Source: Macrostomum lignano (lineage: Eukaryota). From it: 52,534 nt of DNA. Shown one piece after another: positions 18,319 to 46,760 of this stretch. The notes below the pieces were generated by a model. That model was not told the DNA's origin. It saw nothing but the letters and a program-made list of their open reading frames with translations, and did no database searches. The DNA lies in contig NIVC01004263.1 of assembly GCA_002269645.1 (NCBI GenBank), positions 1-52,534 of the forward strand, given 5' to 3'. Numbering within the stretch: position 1 is the first letter of the stretch; every line of letters begins with the position of its first letter. The position numbers and the translations under genes were made by a program.

Positions 18319-19026
18319 ACGAACGTCATAACGAATTTAAACAATTTACAAAGCCACGAAAACAAATTAACGACATGCCGGAAATAACAACATTGAACAT
18401 TGAAACAACAAAAATTAACTCTGCTAAATTTCAATATTTGGTAAATCAACGTATAATTTTCAATACTATGCTGTTTTTAAATTTCTTAAAAAGTTTACTT
18501 CAAATCTATTTCTGTGTTATTACGAGCCAATAAAACGAAGACTTCAAGCAAGTTTTACGACTTGAGCATCAAAATTTCTGTATTTTTTGGTTTCATTCTC
18601 TGCTTCTGATGGCATAAATCAGGGTAGCTGTAGCGCACTCGCGAAACCATTGCAGTAAATTTACAGACACAAAACTGTAACAGACTGCTGTAGAAGTTTT
18701 GAGCAAGTAAACGGAATGGCATGTCGCAACAGTTTAGGTGCCCACGATGCCCAACAAGTCAGCTTGCTGGCTGCTGCATATCAATCTGTAAGGTAGATGT
18801 TCGTCTACAATCGGTGATGAATCGAGACGAAAGCGATTGAATTCGTTTGAGTCGAAAGTTCAGCACAGCGTCGCTGGACTGACGCGTCAGGCTTTTATGC
18901 ATTTGTGATTTGATTATTTAGAAGGAATAACGTACATTAAAAAGCAGCAAAGAAGTACTGTGACGTAAAAGTCAAGGATCTTAGGGCTGTGCCAAGTGGG
19001 GAGGGTGTAAAATAACATATTCAAGT

Positions 19027-19575
19027 ATCAGATGGGAAACTGATAATTCGCCTCAAGTTAACACCTGAGACTGGCTCTATCAGATTGGAAACTGATAATT
19101 AGCCTCAAGTTAACACCTGAGACTGGCTCTATCAGATTGGAAACTGATAATTAGCCTCAAGTTAACACCTGAGACTGGCTCTATCAGATTGGAAACTGAT
19201 AATTAGCCTCAAGTAAACACCTGAAACTTGCTCTATCAGATTGGAAACTGATAATTAGCCTCAAGTAAACACCTGAAACTTGCTCTATCAGATTGGAAAC
19301 TGATAATTAGCCTCAAGGTAACTCCTGAGACTGGCTCTATCAGATTGGAAACTGATAATTAGCCTCAAGTTAACACCTGAGACTGGCTCTATCAGATTGG
19401 AAACTGATAATTAGCCTCAAGTTAACACCTGAGACTGGCTCTATCAGATTGGAAACTGATAATTAGCCTCAAGTTAACACCTGAGCTGGCTCTATCAGAT
19501 TGGAAACTGATAATTAGCCTCAAGTTAACACCTGAGACTGGCTCTATCAGATTGGAAACTGATAATTAGCCTCAA
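19027..19575. repeat. 52-bp minisatellite, ~10 copies
   Basis: Unit GATTGGAAACTGATAATTAGCCTCAAGTTAACACCTGAGACTGGCTCTATCA. Confidence 0.95.
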
Positions 19576-27280: not shown

Positions 27281-29289
27281 CCACAGCATTTTGCAGGGTC
27301 CCTTTGCCGTTCAGGCAACGAATCCATGTACCAATGAAAATGTCGATTTCCGGTCAGAGAACAGGAATATAAGAAATATCGGAGAGCTTTTCTATCAAGC
27401 TTTTATACGCTGACGAGTGAATAATGATTAGCCGAATGTGGTTATCGATTCAGCAGACCAATTTTAATTTCAATATAAGATAGTTTCTCCACTTTGCAGC
27501 GTCCATAACAACTGAACGCACTGGGAAAACTTTTAGTCAGCACCGTTTGCATTTGCCAAAATAAATGTTTGCATGTCGCACCAACCCGATGCCGGATGCC
27601 AACTCTCACAAGTAAAAATGCTGCTGTATGTAGATTACTTATTTGAGTTTTACAACCGGATCTGAATTTTGCTCAAATATCAAGCTTTAACTGTGTTTAG
27701 ATTGGGAAAAACTGACTCTAACGGAATTTGCACAATTTAAACTACAATTCTGTATAAAACTGCATGGGTGCCAACTGCAGTATCCAGATCAGATTCCACT
27801 AAGTAAATTAAGTGTGAAAATTGACAAACATGCTTATGGCAATAGTGTAATTTCATTTGCGAAGCTTTCGCAGGAATTTTCATACGTTGTCTAATGTAGA
27901 AAAGGCGAATTATATCTTCTTGGAATAGCAATCAAACAAGCGATGAAGACGCTTTGAGCTACCAATAATGACGTTTATATCTCCAATATAATCTCTAAAC
28001 AGTTTTGAAGATCCTTGTCATTTAGTGCGAGTAAAATCGCTTTGATAATGAAAAGTTTTTTGCGACCAATTTTTTATTAGAGGCAGGACCTGGCGCACTT
28101 TAAGCGACATTGTCGCACAACCAGCGAGAGGCATTGACTCCCCTGAGCAGGCACACAAGCGCGCGGATACGTACGCAGTCACACGCACAGGCACACCCTC
28201 ACACAGGAGTGTACAGCGGCCCTAACTTTATTTACGTATGTACACTTCACTGCGCCTTGGGGGGTTGGCCCTCAAGGGCGTTGATTGAACGAGCAGAGCC
28301 AAGCCGAGATTCCAATTCAGCCCCAAATTAATGTGACTGCACTTTGAATCGAGCCTGGGACTCTGGAGCATCAGAGCACCGGCTTGACCACTGGGCAATA
28401 GCAATTCTTCCATTCATAAGACTTTTTTAGTCAGTCGACAAGGGGATTCTTTTATGGATTAATCCTAGCCCTAACTTAACCCTAATCCTTCTGAAGCATC
28501 AGCATTTCAGCAATTTCCCATGAGCAAAAGCATTTCAGTAATTCACCACATAAGTCTTGGCATCTCAGCAGCTCCCATAGGGCCTTGAGCTAAAGCATTC
28601 CAGATATTCCCCAATGAGACCTAAACTCAGCAGGTCACCGCCGCATTAGCCTTGACATTTTAGCAATTCCCCCAACAACCACAGCATTTGCAGTAATTGT
28701 TTCCATGAGCCTTGACAGCAAAGCAATTTTCCAATGAACCTTGATATACTAGAAACCCCACCCGTGAGCCTGACATCTCAGAAATTTTCCAAATGAAGCT
28801 TGAAATCATAGCATTCTCTCCAAGAATTACAGCATTTCATCTATTCCCCTCCAGCCTTGACATCTCAGCAATTTCCGCCGTAAGCCTTGACTCTTAGCAA
28901 TTCCCAATGAGTCTTATATTCAACAGGGCGCTTCTGTTTTGGTTATTATTTTTTCGTTCTTTCTTTCATTGAGTTTTCTTCTCTTTAAAATAGCTTTTAT
29001 TAAAGAAATTTGCGATGGTTCACTAACAGTTTAGCAATGGTTCACCAGCGCTGTTTCGCACAATACCTGAGCAGATAGCCACAAATCTACATACTTCTCA
29101 ATAAATCAAAACCATTTGAAACTTTTGCAACTTGCAATTAACAATTGATTTGCAATTCTCTCATACCTATTACTTTACTGTAATAAGTCAGATTAGCACA
29201 GCTCCCCCAAATTAGTGCTGCTCACCTAGATTAGCACCACACCGCCCAGCTAAGCACTATTCTCCCCATATTACCCTACTCTTCCTATA

Positions 29290-30010
29290 TCAGAACTCCC
29301 CCATATTAGCCCCACTCCCCCATATTAGCCACTCCCCCATATTAGCCCCACTCCCCATATTAGCCACTCGCCCATATTAGCCCCACTCCCCATATTAGCC
29401 TCACTCGCCCATATTAGCCCCACTCCCCATATTAGCCTCACTCCCCCATATTAGCCTCACTCCCCCAGATAAGCCTCACTCCCCCATATTAGCCTCACTC
29501 CCCCATTTTAGCCCCACTCCCCCATATTAGCCCCACTCCCCCATATTAGCCCCACTCCCCAGATTAGCCTCACTCCCCCATATTAGCCCCACTCCCCCAT
29601 ATTAGCCCCACTCCCCATATTAGCCTCACTCCTCCATATTAGCCCCACTCCCCAGATTAGCCTCACTCCCCCATATTAGCCCCACTCCCCCATATTAGCC
29701 CCACTCCCCATATTAGCCTCACTCGCCCATATTAGCCCCACTCCCCATATTAGCCTCACTCCCCCATATTAGCCTCACTCCCCAGATAAGCCTCACTCCC
29801 CCATATTAGCCTCACTCCCCCATATTAGCCTCACTCCCCTATATTAGCCTCACTCCCTCATTTTAGCCCCACTCCCCCATATTAGCCTCACTCCCCCATT
29901 TTAGCCCCACTCCCCCATATAAGCCCCACTCCCCCATATTAGCCCCACTCCCCAGATTAGCCTCACTCCCCCATTTTAGCCCCACTCCCCAGATTAGCCT
30001 CACTCCCCCA
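29290..30010. repeat. 19-20-bp satellite (TCCCCCATATTAGCCCCAC)
   Basis: About 35 tandem copies. Confidence 0.95.
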
Positions 30011-30648: not shown

Positions 30649-31190
30649 TTAAAAAAGTCGCCGACGGCGCAACAGGTCGCTTGGACGGACCAGGCCGGCG
30701 CGGCGATACAAAGCCGCGTTGGGCACTCGCTCGTAGCTGACCTTGAACGCGGCACGCAGCAGGCCAGCGTGCGCCGCGTCAACTTGTTGCTCGAGCGACT
30801 CCGTCAGCGTCCAGGTCTCGGTGTTGTACAGCAGGACGGTCTCGATCACCGCCTGGAACAACGCCGCCCTCTGGCGGTCAGGTAAGGCCTCGGACTGCAG
30901 GACTGCCCTCACAAAACGAAAGGCAGCCCAGGCAAGCCCGCGGCGACGCCGCAAATCCTCGCGGACACCGGGAACCAGACCGCCGAGGTAGACAAACTGC
31001 TGACAACGCGGAAGCTCTGTCGCCTCTCCATCAGCGCCTCGGCACAAAATTGCAGCCTCGATGTCGTCCGGCACGCAGAGCACGACGGTCTTCTGCGTGT
31101 TGACCACCAGGCCGACACTCGCCGCAACAGCAACTGGCTTGTCCAGTTGTCGCTGGGTGCCCTCGACAGTTGAGGACTTGACTTACTTGA
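30649..31190 (-). mobile_element. Degenerate RTE-type LINE fragment (RT C-terminal part)
   Basis: FVYLGGLVP...DLRRRRGLAWAAF...ALFQAVIETVLLYNTETWTLT closely parallels the ORF at 16059-17624. Confidence 0.85.
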
Positions 31191-32677: not shown

Positions 32678-33575
32678 TGTAAGAGCCATTATTCCTTGCC
32701 TACTATACTTATACATTGCCTTATAAATACGACTATTTTTTATATTCGATTGAAGAATTCTGTGCCTAATAAATATATGTTTTTAGTATTGTTAAGTAGT
32801 AAAATAGCATCAATAGTAGCTTTTAGCCTAATTCTGTATCTTTAATTAGTTTTAATACGTACGCCATTTTTGCCTGTAATACTATAAAAGAGAGAGAGAA
32901 AAATAAACGAAGGAGAACTTGCGCTCGTTGGTTTCCTCCGCCTGCCAATTTTAGACTCCGGTCTTGGCCCCAGCGGTTGTAATTGTTCCAAAAATAGATC
33001 TGAATTGGTCTTAGTCATTTAAAGGCGCTCCGCCTTCCCTCTCCCACGGAGCTTCGTACAGCCAGAAGCGTACAGGCCTCCTTTCCCCACTCTCCCCAGG
33101 ACGTGCAGTCCCACCCCAAGCCGCTCCCCTTTCCTCCTCTTTCCCAGAGAATATACGCCCCGCCCCTCAATCCTCTCCCCTCTTTGTGGACATTCTGTCT
33201 GCACAGGTGTACAGCCTTATTCCCTCGGACTTACAGTCTGATCCTCCCCCAAGCATCCCCGCTCCCGACCCTTCCTCGTAGAAATTTCCCACATTCATTA
33301 GGCAGATTGCCTTCTTATCTAATGCTGTCAGCATTCCCTATTAGTATTTAGAAGTTCCCCATTAGTGTGCTTTCCCAGGCAACTCTGATCCATCGCGAAG
33401 CCCTTAATTCCCCTCTCCCATCTTTATTCCCTCGGACTAGTTAAGTTAATATAGATTGTGTCTTGCCGCTCGGACACTCACGCCACCAGGAGCAACCATT
33501 GGCTTACTTCTATTAGTAATAAAACTAGCATATCTATCAGAAATCCCCAAGAATCCCATAACTTACCCTACAACA
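32678..33575 (+). repeat. 5' LTR (end placed at the first ...CAACA before a PBS)
   Basis: Starts TG; identical to 41132-41608 over 477 bp; ends CA followed by AATT-TGG. The end is ambiguous because of the cassette array. Confidence 0.7.
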
Positions 33576-33752
33576 AATTTGGTTGCAGCAGTGAGATTAT
33601 TAAACAGAGAGACAGAACCCTACAACAATTTGGTGTCAGCAATAGGAAAACTTCCCTCCCCCAAGACCCCTGTAACAAATTTGGTAACAGCGGTGGGATT
33701 TTCTTAATAATAAACAGCCCTATAACAAATTTGGTGGCAGCGGTAAAGGATC
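33566..33752 (+). repeat. Array of four LTR-end + PBS cassettes, period 51/51/50 bp
   Basis: CCCT(AC/GT/AT)AACAA(A)TTTGGT core with TGG at 33580, 33631, 33682 and 33732. The tRNA-Leu-like PBS variants are followed by unrelated spacers. Confidence 0.85.
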
Positions 33753-33804: not shown

Positions 33805-34776
33805 AGTAGTAAGGCCGCAGTTAACGAGGCCCTTGCGCTCTTAGCTGAAGAGCTCCGCAACCGACTCGAATTAGGTCCCCTCAGACATGTGAAGATCCAG
33901 AAGTACCTTCCCAGCCAAGATATTAGAATCTGGCTTACCGCATTTGACCAGAGATGTGAAAATGAAGGCATAGAAGAAGAAAATAGGAAGCAGGAACTAC
34001 TTACCAATTTAGACCTGAGTACTGCGTTTGCAGCAGTTCAACGCCTCAACCTCCCAGCTAATCTCCCCTATGAAGAGTTCAAAGAAAGACTAATCGAAAG
34101 ATTTGGAAAAGTAGGTAGCTCCGCTGAATTTCGCGAAGAGTTTAGGAATCGCTGCCAAGGCAGAAACGAATCCACTGACAGTTTTGCCGATGCTTTGATT
34201 GAATTAGCCTCCCGCGCATTCCTAAATATGGATGCTGAGCAGAGAGAGGAAGAACTGGTCGAACAGTTCATTAAAGGTGTGAGAACCCCTCCCGACACCC
34301 GTGAGAAGCTAATTTTTGCCCAACCTGCTAGTCTCCAAGCCGCCCGCAGAATACTGCGCAGAATTGAAGCTGCTTACCAGATGTCCCACAAAGGAGGAAT
34401 CCGAGTGACTAAGGAAGAAAAAGAGGAGTATAAAGGCAGAACTGACCAGTTGATCATCAATCAGCAGAACCAGATTGATCGCCAAGAACGAGTCATCCAG
34501 GACTTAAAGAAGCAGCTAGCAGCGCAAAGCGCTCCGCCACCCCAAGCCTATCCCCAGCAACAGTATAGACAGCCACCCCCTCAGCAGTATAGACTGCCAC
34601 CTCCTCAGCAGTACAGACCGCAACCCCAGCAGCAGTTCAGACAGCCACCCCAGCAGCTGATGAACCAACCGCCAAGGCGTGAACCCCCAAGAAGGAATGA
34701 GCGTCAGCCCCCCAATCCCAGATATGAGCCGCTGAAGTTCCGTAACCCCCGTGACTCCCAGAAGTCGGGAAACTGA
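33805..34776 (+). CDS. gag: Gypsy gag (no in-frame AUG at the 5' end; Gln/Pro-repeat tail, no Zn knuckle)
   Basis: KYLPSQDIRIWLTAFDQRC...YEEFKERLIERFG...FRNRCQGRNESTDSFADALIELASRAF...EQFIKGV. Frame open from 33805. Confidence 0.88.
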   Translation, partial: SSKAAVNEALALLAEELRNRLELGPLRHVKIQKYLPSQDIRIWLTAFDQRCENEGIEEENRKQELLTNLDLSTAFAAVQRLNLPANLPYEEFKERLIERFGKVGSSAEFREEFRNRCQGRNESTDSFADALIELASRAFLNMDAEQREEELVEQFIKGVRTPPDTREKLIFAQPASLQAARRILRRIEAAYQMSHKGGIRVTKEEKEEYKGRTDQLIINQQNQIDRQERVIQDLKKQLAAQSAPPPQAYPQQQYRQPPPQQYRLPPPQQYRPQPQQQFRQPPQQLMNQPPRREPPRRNERQPPNPRYEPLKFRNPRDSQKSGN

Positions 34777-37700
34777 GAAGCCAGGGTCGAGTTAAGAGGC
34801 CACGCCCCTCAGGCCAAAATTTTGCTTACTCTCCGGCCTCCCCATCATTCGAAAATGCCCCCCAACCAAAATACCGGCAACCTCCCCAGTACGGTTTCCG
34901 CTATCCCCGCAAAACCTCCCATGTACAGCCAATGCCTGTAAATAATGCGATATTTGTCTCCCCCAATAATTTTTCACTTCTTGCCTTTGATGATGCCGAC
35001 GATGCCATGCCAAATGCCCCCCATGACCCCCATGTGTACAATTCCCCCCATGCGACCGCCTCTCATGTAACCAATGCGACCAAAGCTCATGTACATCATG
35101 CGTCCGCACCCCATGTACCCACTGCGCTTGCACCCCATGTATCCCATGCGATTAAAACCAATAATGCTCTATCCAGTGCTGGAACCCGCTCAAAGAAGCG
35201 ACGAAAGCCAAAACCCAATTCCCCATCCCGAATCGACCTGACCAAGCTAGAAGGCTATGAAGCTGTAATAGTCGGCGATATCCAGAAAGAATCGATTAAT
35301 TTCTTGCTAGACACAGGCGCCAGAAATAACTTCCTGAGCCGCTCAACCTGGTCTAAGCTATTCCGTGCCGATCAAATCCGAGACACTAGCAAAAGTATCA
35401 GTACATTTGACGGTACACCAGTACAATTAGAAGGAGAAGTATCTGCCCAAGTGAAGTTTGGCGATATCCAAATCGAAGTAGACTTCCTCCTATGCCGACA
35501 CGATTGCGATAATATCTTAGGAATGGAATTTTTCCTATCCCAATGCGAAAGCATTCAGCTAGCCAAAGGAATGCTAGTGCTTAACGAAGGTACCTGTATA
35601 CCCATGCAGTATACCCGCCTACCCGTGAAAGTTTGCCGAGTCTATACTCAAGAAAGAGTAATCATCCCAGCTAATAGTGCCCTCCGAATACCCGTGAAGT
35701 TAGCCAAGAACTGTGAATCGAATTACGGCACCCCCATGACCATTGAAGCTATTGGCGATACTGTCCGAACCCGTGATTTCTCATTAGAAATGGTTCCAAC
35801 CCTAGTAACCATGAAAGAAGGCAAAGGAATTGTCGAGATAATAAATCGTCACCCAGTAGATGTGAACCTAACCAAAACTTCCCTAATTGGCTTAGCCAGA
35901 CCCATGAAAGCTAAAGACTTAACCTATTGGCAAACCCAACCCCCCAGTTCCCAACTCCCTGCGAAAGTCAACCAGACTCAATGTACTGAAGATTCCTGGA
36001 TTAATGAAGTGAGCCTTGGCCCTGAATTGTCAGATGAACAGCGAAAAGCAGTCATCGACTTAATGAAAGAAAACCGTGAAGCCTTTTCCCAGAATGAATT
36101 AGACATGGGCCTGACACATTTAGTAACCCACGAAATCTCTATCAAAGACCCCACTCCCGTTAGAATCCCAGCTAGACGCATCCCCCCACACTTGCAAAAG
36201 CAAGTTGACGCCCAATTAGACGATATGTTAGCCAAAAACTTAATTAGACCCTGCTACTCAACCTATTCCACCCCCCTAGTAATTGTCCCCAAGAAAGACG
36301 GTTCTATCAGAATCGTGAGCGATTTCCGAGTGCTCAACTCAAGAGTTAATTATTACCCCTACCCCCTCCCCAATATCCAAGAGACCTTCTCCCACCTGAC
36401 TGGTAGCCAATACTTTAGCAGCCTTGATTTAAACTCAGGATACTGGCAAGTCCCCATCAAAGAAGAAGACAAGCATCGAACCGCCTTCTCCACCCTAACT
36501 AGAGGCCAATTTGAATATCAAGTGATGGCCCAAGGACTTTCCAATGCCCCCGGAACCTTCCAACGCCTGATGAATTTAGTACTATTAGGAATCCAACACA
36601 AGTTCGCCATGTCCTATATCGATGACATAATAGCCTACTCCCAAACTTTTGCCGACCATTTAGAGCACCTAAGAGAAGTATTTAAGCGACTAATTGCCGC
36701 AGGTCTGAAGTTGAGACCCAAAAAGTGCAACCTTTTCCATCACGAGTTGAAATATCTAGGACACGTGATTGGCCGGCAAGGCATTCAAACAGACAAGACG
36801 AAGATTGAAGCAATCCAAACTTGGCCCCGTCCCAAAGACGTAAAAGAATTACGCAGTTTTCTTGGCCTATGCAATTATTATTGCCGATTTGTGAAGAATT
36901 ATGCCGAAGTGGCTCACCCCCTATTCCAATTGACCCGAAAAGGAGTTCAGAATTTCCAATCTAAGTGGAGCAAAGTGCATGATGAAGCCTTTGAGTCCCT
37001 GAAACAGCGAATGATGTCCACCGAAGTGTTAGCCTACCCCGAATATGTCGAAGATGAAAATGTGAAGATGGTGCTCGACACAGATGCCAGTGACGACAGG
37101 ATTGGCGCATGCCTTGGCCAAATCCAGAGTGATGGCATAGAGCGACCAATAGCCTATTTTAGTAGAGCAATGAAAGAATCTGAGAAGCGATACCCCATTA
37201 CCCGGAAAGAATTGTTAGCCCTTGTCGACGCTATGAGGCATTTCAGATTTTATCTGATCGGCAAGAAATTCTTAGCCCGAACTGATCATAAAGCGATAAT
37301 TTGGCTCATGAGACAAACTGAAGCAACCGGAATCCTAGGTAGATGGATAGAGCGTCTGAACGAATTCAGGTTCGACATTGAACACAGAAGCGGCGCAAAG
37401 CATTCCAATGCCGACGGATTGTCGAGAAGACCAGCTGAGATAGCTGAAGCCCCTGAAGTATCCCCTGAAGCAGCCCCTGAACTTGCTGAAACAGCACCTG
37501 AAGTTTCCGAAGTCCCTGACGCAGCCACTGAGCCTGCTGAAGCGATCCTTGAAACCCCTGAAGTACCTGAAGCGATTCCTGAGAAAATTGAGCCAATCCC
37601 TGAGAAAGTTGAGAAGTTGACCCCTGTTCCCCTGAGAGATGAGAGTGCTCCCGCTGAAACTAAGGACAACCCCATGTCCCAGTCACCTGAAGCCCTGACA

Positions 37701-39524
37701 GAAAGCGAGACCCAGCTTGAATATCCCGAATCTAGGATACAGCTGAATGTCTCAGGAAGAGAAGTAGATGAAAGAGAAGAAGAGACAGGAAAGTGTGAGA
37801 AACTATTAACTGATTACCTCCCCAACCCCCTGAAGAAAGAACAGATTGAAGAAGCCCAAGCTGCTGATCCCATCATTAAAGCCCTGCTAGAAGCCAAGAA
37901 ACAGAAATTGAGCCAATTTCCCAAATCACCGGACGTGCCAGAAAAGATCAGTAAGCATTATGCGCTGATGAAAATCGATAACGAATTATTAACAATTACT
38001 GAAGACGGAAAAATTAAAGTTGTTTTGCCCCCATCCCTAGATAAAGCAGTCTTTACTGACCTTCACTGCAGCCCCCTCGCAGGACATCTAGGAAGAGATA
38101 AGACGCTCCAGAGAATCCGAGAAAGATTTTGGCGACCCGGATTGAGTACCTCAGTTGAGCAGTTGATTGCTGAGTGCATCCCCTGTCTCGAGAGCAAGAA
38201 AGGACACTTTGTCCAGGCCCCAGTCCAGTCATTCCCCATTGGCGAAGCATTTAGCCGCCTGCATATAGACATTATCGGCCCAATATCTAAAGAAAGCAAA
38301 CGAGGTCATAAATATGTCCTGACAGTTGTTGATAGTACAACTAGATACCCCTTCGCTTTTCCCATTAGAAACCAAAAGTCAGACACAGTTATTAAGATAC
38401 TACTCGAGCGAATAGTAGCAGAGTATGGACAGCCAACGTGGATTCACACGGACAATGGAAAAACCTTTGCTAGTAAACAGTTTAAGGCATTTTGTGAATT
38501 ATATAATATTCGCCACACCTTCACTACCCCCTATCATGCCCAATCTAACGGACTAGTTGAACGTTTCAATAAGCAAGTCAAGTCAATCATCACCTGTCTG
38601 ATCAATAAGGATCATGGTGATTGGGATTTACTAATTCCAGCAGCCTTAGTAGCAGTCCGCACCAGCCCCAATTCAACCACAGGTTTTTCCCCTCACTTCC
38701 TATTATTTGGCAGAGAAGCCACCTTACCTCTAGACACTCAGATCAGAAGTACAGCAGAACACGCTGATTATCCCGCCTACATTACTAAGCATGCCGAAAG
38801 ATTAGAGGAAGCTCATAGGATAGTCAAGAAGAAGTTGGAAAAAGTAGTAGAGAAAAGACAAGTCGCCGCTTAAACTAACAAGTTACCCCCTAGAATCCCT
38901 ATAGGTTGCCTTGCACTGATTAATAACCCCCAGCTAGATAGCGAAGAATCCCACAAGTTCCACCGAAAGAAGAGATCCGCCTTTAGAGTTTTAGCCCAAC
39001 TATCAGAAGTGGTTTTCAAAGTCCAGAAAGAAGAAGAAGGAGAATTAGTAGGGAAAGAAATGCTCGTGCATCGAGATAACCTAACTCCAGTCCCGAACTC
39101 AACCCCAGAACAAATCACTAAGGAAGGCCAGCGAGATGCCCCTGATTCCGCCCCTGTTCCCATCCCCACTTCCGCTAAACCTAAGAGACAACCTGTAATT
39201 AAGGAAGGCCAACCCAGCCGAAATTCCCAAAAATTAATCTTGCCCGAACCAGTTGAATCTGAAGAAGAATCCGATGAAGAAGAAATTAATTGGAGATGCC
39301 AAATTAGAGAAGCAGAGAACGAAGAGTTAGAAGAAGAAAACAATGAAATCCAGCCAGAAGAATGGAGTGAAGCCCAAACAGAGGAAGAGAATGAAATGAC
39401 CGATGAGTCAGAGAGTGAGGCCCCAAACGAAGAGATCCCTCAGCCCCAACCCCCCTCTCCTGCCCGCGAGATCCCGAACCCCGCGCCGTCACCCCTACAA
39501 TTTAAGGCCCCCACCCCAAAATAA
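34767..39524 (+). CDS. pol: Gypsy pol (protease, RT, RNase H, integrase), reached by a putative -1 frameshift; in-frame TAA at 38871-38873
   Basis: FLLDTGA; LDLNSGYWQV, YIDD; LDTDASD...ELLALV; H-x4-H...C-x2-C; HIDIIGP, HTDNG, VERFNK. The same frame continues past the stop into a GPY/F-like region and VHRDNL. Confidence 0.93.
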
Positions 39525-39971
39525 ACAGCGTTGCAACTGTCATCTAGACAGACTACTATTAACACTAAACCTCTTGCGCAACTTAGAATTTTAGCCCGTC
39601 TACACCTTCCTACCCCTCCCTCGCCGTCCCCATTCGCCCAACAGACCCCAAATTTTAGACAAAGAGAGCCCTCGACTAGACCCTTGCTATGCACAAAGGA
39701 CCCCTCAAATTATCGATCGACAAAGAAACTAGAGCCCAAAGAGCGTAGAAAAATGAGGTTGGTCACGAAAACAAGAGGACCTCCCTGGTCTGTGAACAAT
39801 AGTCAGTAAATATAAGCATTTTTAGGCCGTTGCACAATCAGATCCCAAGCCTCCTGCTCTCCGAAATTCCCGAATCCTCCGCAATCACTACTGTCAAGCC
39901 CGACTTTTAAAATTTCTACTATCCAAGCGATTTTTAAGACCCTATACTGATCAAGCAATCAGTCCCCAATC

Positions 39972-40966
39972 ATGTACTCCGAGGAGAGTCTTAGGCAATT
40001 AGAGGATGACCTCCGCCTCAGCGATTCTGACGCTGATGAGTTCGACGACGAATCAGATAGCGACTTGCCTGTCCCCGAGCGCCAGCCTACGAGACCAAGT
40101 AAGCCCGGTCCCAAGCCCCGCATCGCCTCGGTTGTGACTCGTCCTCCGCCATCCACCTCAAACGCCTGCCCACCGTCATCCGCCTCAGACGCCCGTCCGC
40201 CGCCATCCACCTCAGACGCCCGCCCGTCGCCATCCATCTCGGAAGCTCGAGTAGCACTGCTCAAGCGTCACGCCGACGTGCCAGTTGCTATCTCCCCGGC
40301 CGCCATTCAACGCCAACCCCCAACACCAAGTCGGCTATCGTTTTGAGCACGAGTGAAGCCCCGCCGCCGCCCATCCGCAAGAGACTTGGACCCCGTCCCT
40401 CATCAGCGCAACAAGAGTCTCGACCCCGCTCCCGATCTCCGCCGAAGCAGCAGCCTGTGAAACCTCTTGTCACCCCGCCGCCGAATTATGGAGTACGGCC
40501 GATGAACCAGCCGCGTCCCCGCCCCGCTCCGCCGATCAAAATGGAGCCACTGGATTCTGGCATACCGCCCCTGATGGCCGGCTTTGTCAGGCAGGATCAG
40601 CCGCTGCGCGAAATCGGCGGTAACTTCACACAAGCTGTCGAGAGCCTGCCGGAGGCTCAGCGTGCCAGCTACCGCCGCCTGATTACGGCCATTAAGCTGT
40701 ACTTGGTTCAGGCTGGAAGGTTTCGAGACGGACGCGAATTCCCACAGCGCGAGACTCTGCGGCCGGTTTTAAATAATCTGCGCCAACTGCAGCCCGTGCA
40801 CGCAGTCGCTGCCTGGAGGCGCGCTGTGCATTACGCACTATCGGACCTTCGGCGCGGCCCTCGACGTTTCAACGAGCAGAGCCTCGGCCTCGAAATTCGC
40901 TGGCTCGGCCAGGAGTGCGGCTGGCCGTATCGTAATCAACTGCCAAGCGAGTTTAATATGTTTTAG
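39972..40966 (+). CDS. Extra ORF of unknown function inside the Gypsy element (split by a frameshift near 40320-40346)
   Basis: ATG at 39972. Acidic N-terminus, Pro/Ser repeats and a ~120-aa complex C-terminal domain. GC-rich. Lies between pol and the 3' LTR. Confidence 0.7.
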
Positions 40967-41131
40967 TAGCATTTGACATTCATTTTGCATGCGTAAAACT
41001 TTTAGGTACATCATTTTGTTTCCATAATCTATGTTTTAATTTTGTGTGTATTGTTCACTATTGCTTTATTAGTACTTTTTGAAAATTTTCACTCATTACT
41101 CATTCAAATTTTTCAAGCCAGGAAGGCCAAT

Positions 41132-41608
41132 TGTAAGAGCCATTATTCCTTGCCTACTATACTTATACATTGCCTTATAAATACGACTATTTTTTATATT
41201 CGATTGAAGAATTCTGTGCCTAATAAATATATGTTTTTAGTATTGTTAAGTAGTAAAATAGCATCAATAGTAGCTTTTAGCCTAATTCTGTATCTTTAAT
41301 TAGTTTTAATACGTACGCCATTTTTGCCTGTAATACTATAAAAGAGAGAGAGAAAAATAAACGAAGGAGAACTTGCGCTCGTTGGTTTCCTCCGCCTGCC
41401 AATTTTAGACTCCGGTCTTGGCCCCAGCGGTTGTAATTGTTCCAAAAATAGATCTGAATTGGTCTTAGTCATTTAAAGGCGCTCCGCCTTCCCTCTCCCA
41501 CGGAGCTTCGTACAGCCAGAAGCGTACAGGCCTCCTTTCCCCACTCTCCCCAGGACGTGCAGTCCCACCCCAAGCCGCTCCCCTTTCCTCCTCTTTCCCA
41601 GAGAATAT
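41132..41608 (+). repeat. Truncated 3' LTR
   Basis: Identity to the 5' LTR stops abruptly after GAGAATAT. Confidence 0.9.
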
Positions 41609-41794
41609 CACCTAACGGCCGTGGGCTAGCCAGACAATCCACTACACAAAAAATACCTGGCTAGCCAGTGAGTCCACGTGTGGACCCACACAGGCTAGCC
41701 TCACCTAACGGCCGTGGGCTAGCCAGACAATCCACTACACAAAAAATACCTGGCTAGCCAGTGAGTCCACGTGTGGACCCACACAGGCTAGCCT
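41608..41794. repeat. 93-bp tandem duplication rich in short palindromes
   Basis: Two copies starting at 41609 and 41702; GGCTAGCC and GTCCAC-GT-GTGGAC motifs. Confidence 0.9.
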
Positions 41795-44716: not shown

Positions 44717-45422
44717 ATGATGAAACTTATTAACGCGCAACTATTAGCATATAAAATAAAGTAGAGTAACATGTTGTGCACGCTATATTAAAATAATGGT
44801 AGTCTTCATCCTTCAGAATGAAATGCTTTGGGTAATATATTTTGTTAATGATATATTCTCCAGTGTATTTTCACGGAAATCAGCCTCTAAAACAATTACA
44901 GGATCTCTGAATCTGACTGCTTTTATTTAATGTATTGATTGTATTCACAGATCAATGTATCGTGGGTTGCTTTCACAAGCTCGAAATTTCACATCGAAAC
45001 CAGTTATTTTCATAAACTCGAAATTTCACAACCTCGAAAACCATTTTGAACTCGAATAAACTCGATAAACTCGAAAGCAAGTTTAACGGAAAACCAATTT
45101 AAGTATTTATGCACTTTCTGCAGTCCGTCTAGACTGTGTTGTTTATTGCAAAGGCATGCTAGTCTAAATAACGGCGGCAAGGAATGAGTACGTTAGTATT
45201 CCTGAAGTACATGTTCGTAGCAAGGTTTTACAAATTGTAGATACATCTAGACTGCGCATATCTCTAATTCCCCAATCTGGTATGTTCTGAAGTTCTGTCC
45301 CAGTCAGGTGGTATACAGTTACTACAGCAATCGTTAGGTAAGTACATGTAAGTGACTGCAGCAAGGTTTTTTAATGTTTTCAGTATGCCATTTGTTGTAT
45401 TCCCGAATGCAACAAAATCAGT

Positions 45423-46101
45423 TTTAGCGCCGCAGGCACTCATTTTAGCACCACAGGCACTCATTTTAGCACCGCAGGCACTCATTTTAGCACCGCAGGC
45501 ACTCATTTTAGCGCCGCAGGCACTCATTTTAGCGCCGCAGGCACTCATTTTAGCACCACAGGCACTCATTTTAGCGCCGCAGTCACTCATTTTAGCACCG
45601 CAGGCACTCATTTTAGCGCTGCAGGCACTCATTTTAGCGCTGCAGGCACTCATTTTAGCGCCACAGGCACTCATTTTAGCACCGCAGGCACTCATTTTAG
45701 CGCCGCAGACACTCATTTTAGCGCCACAGGCACTCATTTTAGCACCGCAGGCACTCATTTTAGCGCCACAGGCACTCATTTTAGCGCCACAGGCACTCAT
45801 TTTAGCACCGCAGGCACTCATTTTAGCGCCACAGGCACTCATTTTAGCGCCACAGGCACTCATTTTAGCACCGCAGGCACTCATTTTAGCGCTGCAGGCA
45901 CTCATTTTAGCGCTGCAGGCACTCATTTTAGCGCCGCAGGCACTCATTTTAGCGCTGCAGGCACTCATTTTAGCGCCGCAGGCACTCATTTTAGCACCGC
46001 AGGCACTCATTTTAGCGCTGCAGGCACTCATTTTAGCGCTGCAGGCACTCATTTTAGCGCCACAGGCACTCATTTTAGCACCGCAGGCACTCATTTTAGC
46101 A
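45423..46101. repeat. 21-bp minisatellite (GCAGGCACTCATTTTAGC(A/G)CC), ~32 copies
   Basis: Stop-free in some frames, which produces spurious long ORFs. Same unit (opposite strand) as in the MITE at 7730-8093. Confidence 0.95.
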
Positions 46102-46760
46102 CTAAAAGTAAGCACTGGTATTTTGGCCTTAGAAAAGAATACCGACAGGCAACTCATTTTTAGGATATATAGGATGCCCGGCGCTTCAGCTTGGCCGGCT
46201 CTTACGCCACTATGTATTATTATATTTCAAATATTTTTACAGTATTGGTTACAGTTTGTATATAATGGTGTGCGAGTAATAAAGCAGTGCATCAATATAA
46301 ATAAATCGAAGTACAGTATAAAATAAATCGAATAAAAGTAGAGAATTGATATTTGAAAACTGATATGTATTGAATTGTAAAATAGGATTTGACATTATGG
46401 AATTAAAAGATATCTCAGTTATTAGGCAATAAAATATTGATTACTATTGTGATGGATTTAAGTAGTAAAAAATAGTTTACAGGTATTGTCATGGATACAG
46501 AGTAATAAGTGACTGTGGATATCAGTTAATTGCTCATTAATTGGTAACGTATGTAAACAGTCAACATTCAGTGTAAATTTATAGCGTAGCATGACTAGAG
46601 AGCTTTATGGTTGCTATAGCGAAGATATTAAAATTGTCAATGTTAGTCAGTTAATTCTGTTTTCACTGAACTAAAGTTACTAAACCAATAATTAAACTGG
46701 TTTTAAATAAGCATTCATATGCTTCTCACTTTCAACTCGTTTTGCTATGGTGACAAAAGT

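Follow-up and report, generated by a model that had tools for sequence, protein, structure and literature searches.

A selected, clade-wide third open reading frame of Macrostomum lignano Ty3/Gypsy retrotransposons, possibly encoding a type-specific regulator

The 52,534-nucleotide (nt) stretch analysed here (positions 1–52,534 of the forward strand of Macrostomum lignano contig NIVC01004263.1, assembly GCA_002269645.1; hereafter, the window) carries a young Ty3/Gypsy long terminal repeat (LTR) retrotransposon with a third open reading frame (ORF3) downstream of gag and pol. We found that ORF3 is a real gene, under selection and present throughout a flatworm Ty3/Gypsy clade, and that many old ORF3 types have been exchanged, together with the U3 (unique 3′) part of the LTR, among gag-pol backbones that are nearly identical, and also across the divide between autonomous and pol-less elements. 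The anatomy and evolution of the gene favour a nuclear, type-specific regulator. By analogy with foamy-virus Tas/Bel1 and with VANC of Arabidopsis VANDAL transposons, we propose, at a probability of roughly 45%, that it may be a type-specific activator or anti-silencer. ORF3 and its parts lie in the window as follows:
39972..40966, + strand: ORF3, ~331 codons in unbroken sister copies; broken in the window copy near 40316–40321
39972..40061, + strand: acidic N-terminus with a predicted amphipathic helix at residues 4–15 (charge count and helix prediction)
40589..40963, + strand: conserved basic five-helix C-terminal domain of ~120 amino acids (aa), from an alignment of 32 sequences (A1) and AlphaFold2
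39809..39839, + strand: putative internal ORF3 promoter, a TATA-like AATATAAG ~160 nt 5′ of the ATG and, after it, a TTGCACAA motif common to the subgroup

In the window, the ATG at 39972 opens 124 codons (MYSEESLRQLEDDLRLSDSDADEFDDESDSD..., with RPPPSTS repeats) and a second frame, 40103–40966, encodes the helical C-terminus, the switch between the two lying near a C-run at ~40316–40321. A DNA search of the M. lignano genome returned 24 ORF3 matches, 23 of them besides the window, and seven of these 23 (L002, L004, L005, L006, L008, L013 and L014) read as a single open frame of 322–343 aa from the ATG, which bears out the ~330-codon, ATG-started gene in two frames proposed by a first-pass annotation made from the sequence alone. 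The RPPPSTSDA repeats that it listed are present, confined to the subfamily of the window. Because contigs from the three of four public runs that cover the break differ from the window at full depth and match the unbroken sisters, the break is either private to the window copy or an assembly error. Contigs of presumed-RNA runs also overlap parts of ORF3, an overlap that cannot show expression. As had been noted at first pass, ORF3 is richer in GC (0.616) than gag (0.503) and pol (0.463) in the window; over 18 elements, mean GC at third codon positions was 0.63 in the C-terminal domain versus 0.45 in the reverse transcriptase (RT).

The ratio of non-synonymous to synonymous substitution rates (dN/dS) was 0.039–0.154 for the full ORF3 in 6/6 pairs of four close open copies from the nearest group, and 0.058–0.173 for its low-complexity N-terminal part in the same four copies. 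Neither a dN/dS of ~1 nor a described family, the two outcomes named beforehand as speaking against the accessory gene, was found. A query of the C-terminal 141 aa gave at least 151 matches with identity down to 24% (150 of 229 candidates scored), and 40 loci fetched across this identity range comprised 29 with pol domains upstream, five with a gag piece only and six that were fragments or interrupted. A reverse test, which avoids ascertainment by ORF3, started from an integrase (IN) query and gave 106 matches at 66–100% identity, then a gap, then 44 at 47–53%. Integrase and domain coordinates were compared by hand, with a profile search for the leftovers. The ORF3 domain lay at most ~3 kb downstream for 89 of the 106 in-clade matches and at 5–10 kb for four; two matches were at contig ends, and in the remaining 11 the profile search found the domain in eight and not in three, so that the domain is downstream of 101 of the 104 assessable matches.

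A sister lineage (RT ~62%; L139–L143, L147–L176) has an ORF3 of its own (83 matches, 240–290 aa), with a very acidic middle, that begins immediately at the stop codon of pol; its C-terminal end is a likely remote homologue of the ORF3 domain. The two domains align collinearly (hhalign E 1.9e-4 and 3.6e-5), with a score of 29.6 where 60 block shuffles reached no more than 19.5; the domain therefore probably predates the clade. Most copies of a more distant Gypsy lineage (RT ~59%; L144:847-6243, L177–L193) have an ORF3-like region in frame with the integrase tail, with its own Met and an acidic LEQQLSLSAS start; homology of this pol-fused reading frame to the ORF3 domain was unsupported (hhalign E 0.24).

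All 28 full-length members combine an acidic start (net charge −7 to −11 over the first 30 residues), a basic linker and a net-basic domain, and their maximum 19-residue hydropathy does not exceed 1.11. Helices are predicted at residues 4–15 and 80–94 and in the domain; the remainder is predicted to be disordered and contains the short conserved motifs PxRxxTRP, SVV and RQP. AlphaFold2 modelled the domain as five helices and all-helical (predicted local distance difference test, pLDDT, 83.1; predicted template modelling score, pTM, 0.78). Alignment A1 has five invariant residues (D47, P52, E102, W112 and L118), and nine positions of the domain are mostly basic. The first-pass description of an acidic N-terminus and a helical-looking C-terminal domain, free of signal peptide and transmembrane segment and hence not env-like, thus held. 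An errantivirus-type envelope was rejected on the acidic N-terminus and on hydropathy, a rotifer-type enzymatic ORF3 (SGNH or DEDDy domain) on the lack of a Pfam match and the all-helical model, and a J-domain protein on the DnaJ profile (0/32 members) and the missing HPD column in A1.

None of the 32 domain members had a Pfam match at E < 0.02, in agreement with the earlier statement that the family was not recognised, and Tas/Bel1 and VANC were not among the Pfam, PDB or viral-fold matches listed, where unlisted does not mean excluded. A profile search of 1.84 billion representatives gave seven matches: five M. lignano proteins, one ORF3-like protein and one TPR protein; every homologue with a named source was thus from M. 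lignano. The first-pass alternative of a captured host domain was not supported, as this search yielded no cellular homologue and the sole copy found outside an element carries the element's ORF3 promoter motif; a very old capture of the domain from a host is still conceivable. The other alternative offered there, an accessory protein, is supported by purifying selection, clade-wide presence, non-env character and the lack of a described family.

Comparison of 21 elements (210 pairs) separated the history of ORF3 from that of its backbone. RT was at least 96% identical in 62 of the 210 pairs, and in 48 of these 62 the ORF3 domains were less than 60% identical (median 49%). Synonymous divergence (dS) from the window was 0.05–0.2 in RT, rose to values of up to 0.9 in integrase and, except in the closest copies, reached 1.2 or saturation in ORF3; sliding identity repeated the same trough at ORF3. 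This rise argues against a fitted contact of ORF3 with Gag or Pol, and divergence under strong purifying selection with saturated dS indicates that the types are old and not recently swept. Once three elements with broken domains had been removed, 32 whose LTR start was defined could be compared; the first 300 nt of the LTR, scored as shared at ≥75%, were common to 0/473 pairs with domains <70% identical, 8/16 pairs at 70–95% and 7/7 pairs at ≥95%. The 29 LTR segments common to distant types without exception lie past the LTR TATA, none of them starting before position 277. Promoter, ORF3, polypurine tract (PPT) and U3 thus move as a block, with gag-pol and R-U5 (repeat and unique 5′) exchanged.

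The same block occurs on an old lineage of 5–6-kb elements without pol, which encode a shortened Gag of ~195 aa with a CxxC-H-C knuckle under purifying selection. Its members L074, L078, L079, L082, L112, L113, L115, L117 and L122 have a new Gag C-terminal half containing the zinc knuckle, and LTRs mostly 98–100% identical mark the lineage as recently mobile. With three weak rows (E > 3e-4) dropped and split rows merged, a search with the mini-Gag returned 53 matches, which represent 46 loci. The ORF3 domain lies downstream at 39 of the 46 loci; ORF3 is mostly lost at four, which have identical LTRs or tandem units, and three loci are decayed. Between pol-less copies the dN/dS of ORF3 was 0.07–0.26. 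ORF3s on autonomous and pol-less backbones can be 98–99% identical (L116/L122, L086/L118 and L120/L112), and near-identical mini-Gags carry ORF3s only 44% identical. One young pol-less subfamily with most of ORF3 deleted (L196–L198; G000:C1833, C554) includes three copies arranged head-to-tail with a 4.6-kb period; that a subfamily with identical LTRs lacks ORF3 fits its supply in trans.

ORF3 is likely transcribed from its own internal promoter, as judged from motifs upstream of the ATG. Of 31 sequences, 18 have a TATA-like word 60–200 nt 5′ of the ATG, where 4.4 would be expected; with one sequence per type, the word occurs at −200..−60 in 12 of 21 ORF3 types (2.3 expected). Counts were 3/21 in a control window and 7/21 on the antisense strand, the latter because TATATA is palindromic. 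A GCGGTCCAG/GAGGTCCAG motif, often with CCAAT boxes, is found upstream of ORF3 in 14/14 members of one subgroup and 0/15 members of other subgroups. The putative promoter of the window is the weaker case, since the pattern, clearer in sister subgroups, appears in 3/10 members of the window's own subgroup.

A single locus, seen on three homologous scaffolds (L107:8213-8569 in G000:C846, L109 and L110), encodes the domain by itself in a 118-aa gene; 8 kb of upstream and ~9 kb of downstream sequence contain neither gag nor pol nor an LTR pair. It retains the element's ORF3 promoter motif and TATA, which indicates that it was derived from the element and is not its source; it groups with the GCGGTCCAG/GAGGTCCAG-motif subgroup on a long branch of unsure position. 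Its frame is open though ~40% identical to its nearest relatives, and the three copies differ by four synonymous and two conservative changes. From these few changes the gene is likely functional, and we regard it as a candidate domestication.

A putative promoter of its own, an acidic amphipathic end, a basic domain, indifference to Gag-Pol and joint travel with U3 together resemble Tas and VANC. We propose that the ORF3 product would act in the nucleus, where it would activate or de-silence the LTR promoter of its own type that travels with it. Of its parts, the basic helical domain would serve for recognition, either of element DNA or chromatin itself or of a factor on it, and the acidic amphipathic helix at the N-terminus for the recruitment of co-activators. 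Tas has an acidic activation domain. The internal promoter would supply the protein before the LTR is active, as for foamy-virus Tas. Host silencing would favour rare ORF3-U3 types, so that many persist, and the stand-alone host copy, without acidic end and linker, could be a domesticated competitor. The fullest version of this proposal is an animal LTR retrotransposon clade with foamy-virus- or VANC-like self-activation by a new fold, in which about twenty old ORF3+U3 specificity types circulate as cassettes among shared replication backbones and elements of a parasitic mini-Gag lineage, and a host-domesticated bare domain serves as a dominant-negative brake; as a whole, we consider it doubtful.

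Several observations call for caution in reading the coupling of ORF3 to U3 as type-specific activation. Physical linkage and strand transfer at R also predict this coupling; L092 pairs the LTR of the window with an ORF3 78–80% identical; and a shared-word test detected no excess of shared words between the region upstream of ORF3 and its own U3. The LTR repeats sit in R-U5, are common across types and are absent from the LTR of the window. These subfamily-specific tandem repeats, with units of 12–46 nt and many sharing ACGCTACCA, lie 3′ of the LTR TATA in L065, L070, L075, L078, L086, L089, L112, L116 and L123.

Two other roles are each unlikely in our estimate. ORF3 could be an RNA-level helper of export, stability or translation (Rev-like), with a possibly HEAT/MIF4G-like (Gle1-type) helical domain that perhaps binds transcribed LTR-leader repeats. 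It could instead counter host defences in general by binding a silencing or restriction factor of the host, its types arising from an arms race or from hitchhiking with divergent U3; linkage alone would then suffice for the coupling, the lack of promoter words shared with U3 and the continued movement of the subfamily without ORF3 would be expected, and PxRxxTRP, SVV and RQP in the disordered region resemble docking motifs. A type-blind factor could be borrowed, yet 39/46 pol-less loci keep their own ORF3 at dN/dS 0.07–0.26, and the great age of the types, with strong purifying selection and saturated dS, also speaks against an arms race of this kind. A part in the particle or in integration, as a cofactor for tethering or nuclear import comparable to the chromovirus chromodomain, we hold very improbable for ORF3: the sister-lineage frame does begin at the pol stop codon, and the distant lineage in most copies has its acidic-start frame fused to the integrase tail, but the fused C-terminal domain is not detectably homologous, ORF3s 25–50% identical pair with identical RT and IN, and ORF3 is retained in elements without pol. 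Least probable of all is an interference or selfish factor (same-type exclusion or toxin-antidote-like) held by negative frequency dependence, which would fit the many old types on a homogenised backbone, the ORF3 of parasitic pol-less elements and the host copy kept open; against it, we saw no second partner gene, and the invariant residues form no evident catalytic motif.

The element in the window has LTRs, a primer-binding site (PBS), a PPT, gag, and pol in the order protease (PR)-RT-RNase H (RH)-IN, as is characteristic of Ty3/Gypsy. Its other features are:
32678..33727, + strand: 5′ LTR (TG...CA), with three internal ‘LTR-end + PBS-like’ units near its 3′ end, 33566–33692
33732..33749, + strand: PBS, TGGTGGCAGCGG adjoining the LTR end, at a position common to most compared elements; we take it to be of tRNA-Leu type
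33805..34776, + strand: gag open frame (Retrotrans_gag E=0.0017, short of the Pfam cut-off)
34755..39524, + strand: pol (PR-RT-RH-IN; Pfam gag-asp_proteas, RVT_1, RT_RNaseH, Integrase_H2C2 and rve)
41116..41131, + strand: PPT, AGCCAGGAAGGCCAAT directly 5′ of the 3′ LTR, kept in sisters
41132..41608, + strand: 3′ LTR, truncated after 477 bp; sister LTRs are ~830–1100 bp

The LTRs (32678–33154 and 41132–41608) are 100% identical over 477 bp. The first-pass placement of ORF3 between pol and the 3′ LTR stands, with the correction that this LTR is truncated at 41608. The window gag is 59–99% identical to that of clade members; pol has a weak Integrase_p58_C match (Pfam) in its tail and an in-frame stop at 38871–38873, and several sisters have frames of 1609–1618 aa. 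The end of the 5′ LTR was placed from sister copies, in which the 3′ LTR terminates at the final CCCT(A/G)(C/T)AACA unit. Region 33566–33749 is a tandem array of four ‘LTR end + PBS-like’ units, whose TGGT..CAGC variants all differ. In sister copies (L056, L057, L062 and L118) the 3′ LTR holds several such units and ends at the last, and unit number and order vary between copies; the units could act as decoys for tRNA fragments or as alternative primers. From exactly the truncation point of the 3′ LTR, unrelated sequence occurs as a 93-bp direct duplication (41608–41794). Elsewhere, the window contains minisatellites with 21-, 19- and 52-nt units (regions 45275–46183, 29182–30010 and 18922–19545) and, at 30649–31182 on the − strand, a fragment presumably of a non-LTR-type reverse transcriptase gene.

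Non-env ORF3s are already known from rotifers (PMC5408684) and plants (PMC7264820), and recombining non-autonomous lineages from Athila (PMC2410132). LTR retrotransposons of bdelloid rotifers have ORF3s of GDSL, DEDDy, CC and TM (transmembrane) types. As in the M. lignano clade, these are invertebrate Ty3/Gypsy elements in which an additional ORF occupies the interval from pol to the 3′ LTR; it forms a separate transcription unit, as is likely for the M. lignano ORF3, and a pol-less family, TelKA2n, likewise keeps its ORF3 (PMC5408684). Rotifer ORF3s are recognisable enzymes or membrane proteins, reportedly made from spliced messages, and are family-specific (PMC5408684), whereas that of M. 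lignano belongs to no recognised family, is clade-wide, has promoter signals of its own and comes in many exchangeable types. Tas/Bel1 is likewise a 3′ accessory gene, has an internal promoter such as we propose for ORF3, and its species-specific activation parallels the proposed type specificity (PMC7390438); it differs in that the matches listed for the domain included no sequence or fold match to it and that ours is an env-less flatworm retrotransposon for which activation is inferred. VANC is an accessory protein diversified along with fast-diverging non-coding regions that include tandem repeats (PMC10398659; PMC13547354), its targets hold tandem repeats (PMC10398659), and many LTRs of the clade hold subfamily-specific ones. 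VANC, however, belongs to a plant DNA transposon and has a MAIN-like fold, and the repeats of M. lignano do not track ORF3 type. In Athila, too, distant families recombine, and purifying selection maintains intact ORFs in non-autonomous elements (PMC2410132). Additional ORFs of plant elements are equally obscure in origin; their sense ORFs are env-like with TM segments (PMC7264820), whereas the M. lignano ORF3 product is soluble, and the host carries a derivative of it reduced to the domain.

Our literature search returned no description of this ORF3. The M. lignano LTR clades listed in PMC12801592 are Mag, CsRN1, Gmr1/Osvaldo and Mdg3, with counts only in Table S1; ‘orf’ and ‘accessory’ occur 0 times in its main text, and any family diagrams in its supplements could show ORF3. 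The main text of PMC13524379 does not name Macrostomum. Sequence-specific activators or anti-silencers encoded by elements are established in complex retroviruses and plant DNA transposons, and the search returned no description of one in an animal LTR retrotransposon that lacks env. In the case of ORF3, one genome holds the candidate protein, its natural variants, matching promoters, natural loss and a host-derived truncated copy, in a model with transgenesis and a published LTR-reporter assay (PMC12801592). The system bears on how transposons escape silencing in animal stem and germ cells. Mechanism aside, the clade provides a well-folded domain that matches no recognised family, and a clear case of balanced polymorphism that is modular in build among related transposons.
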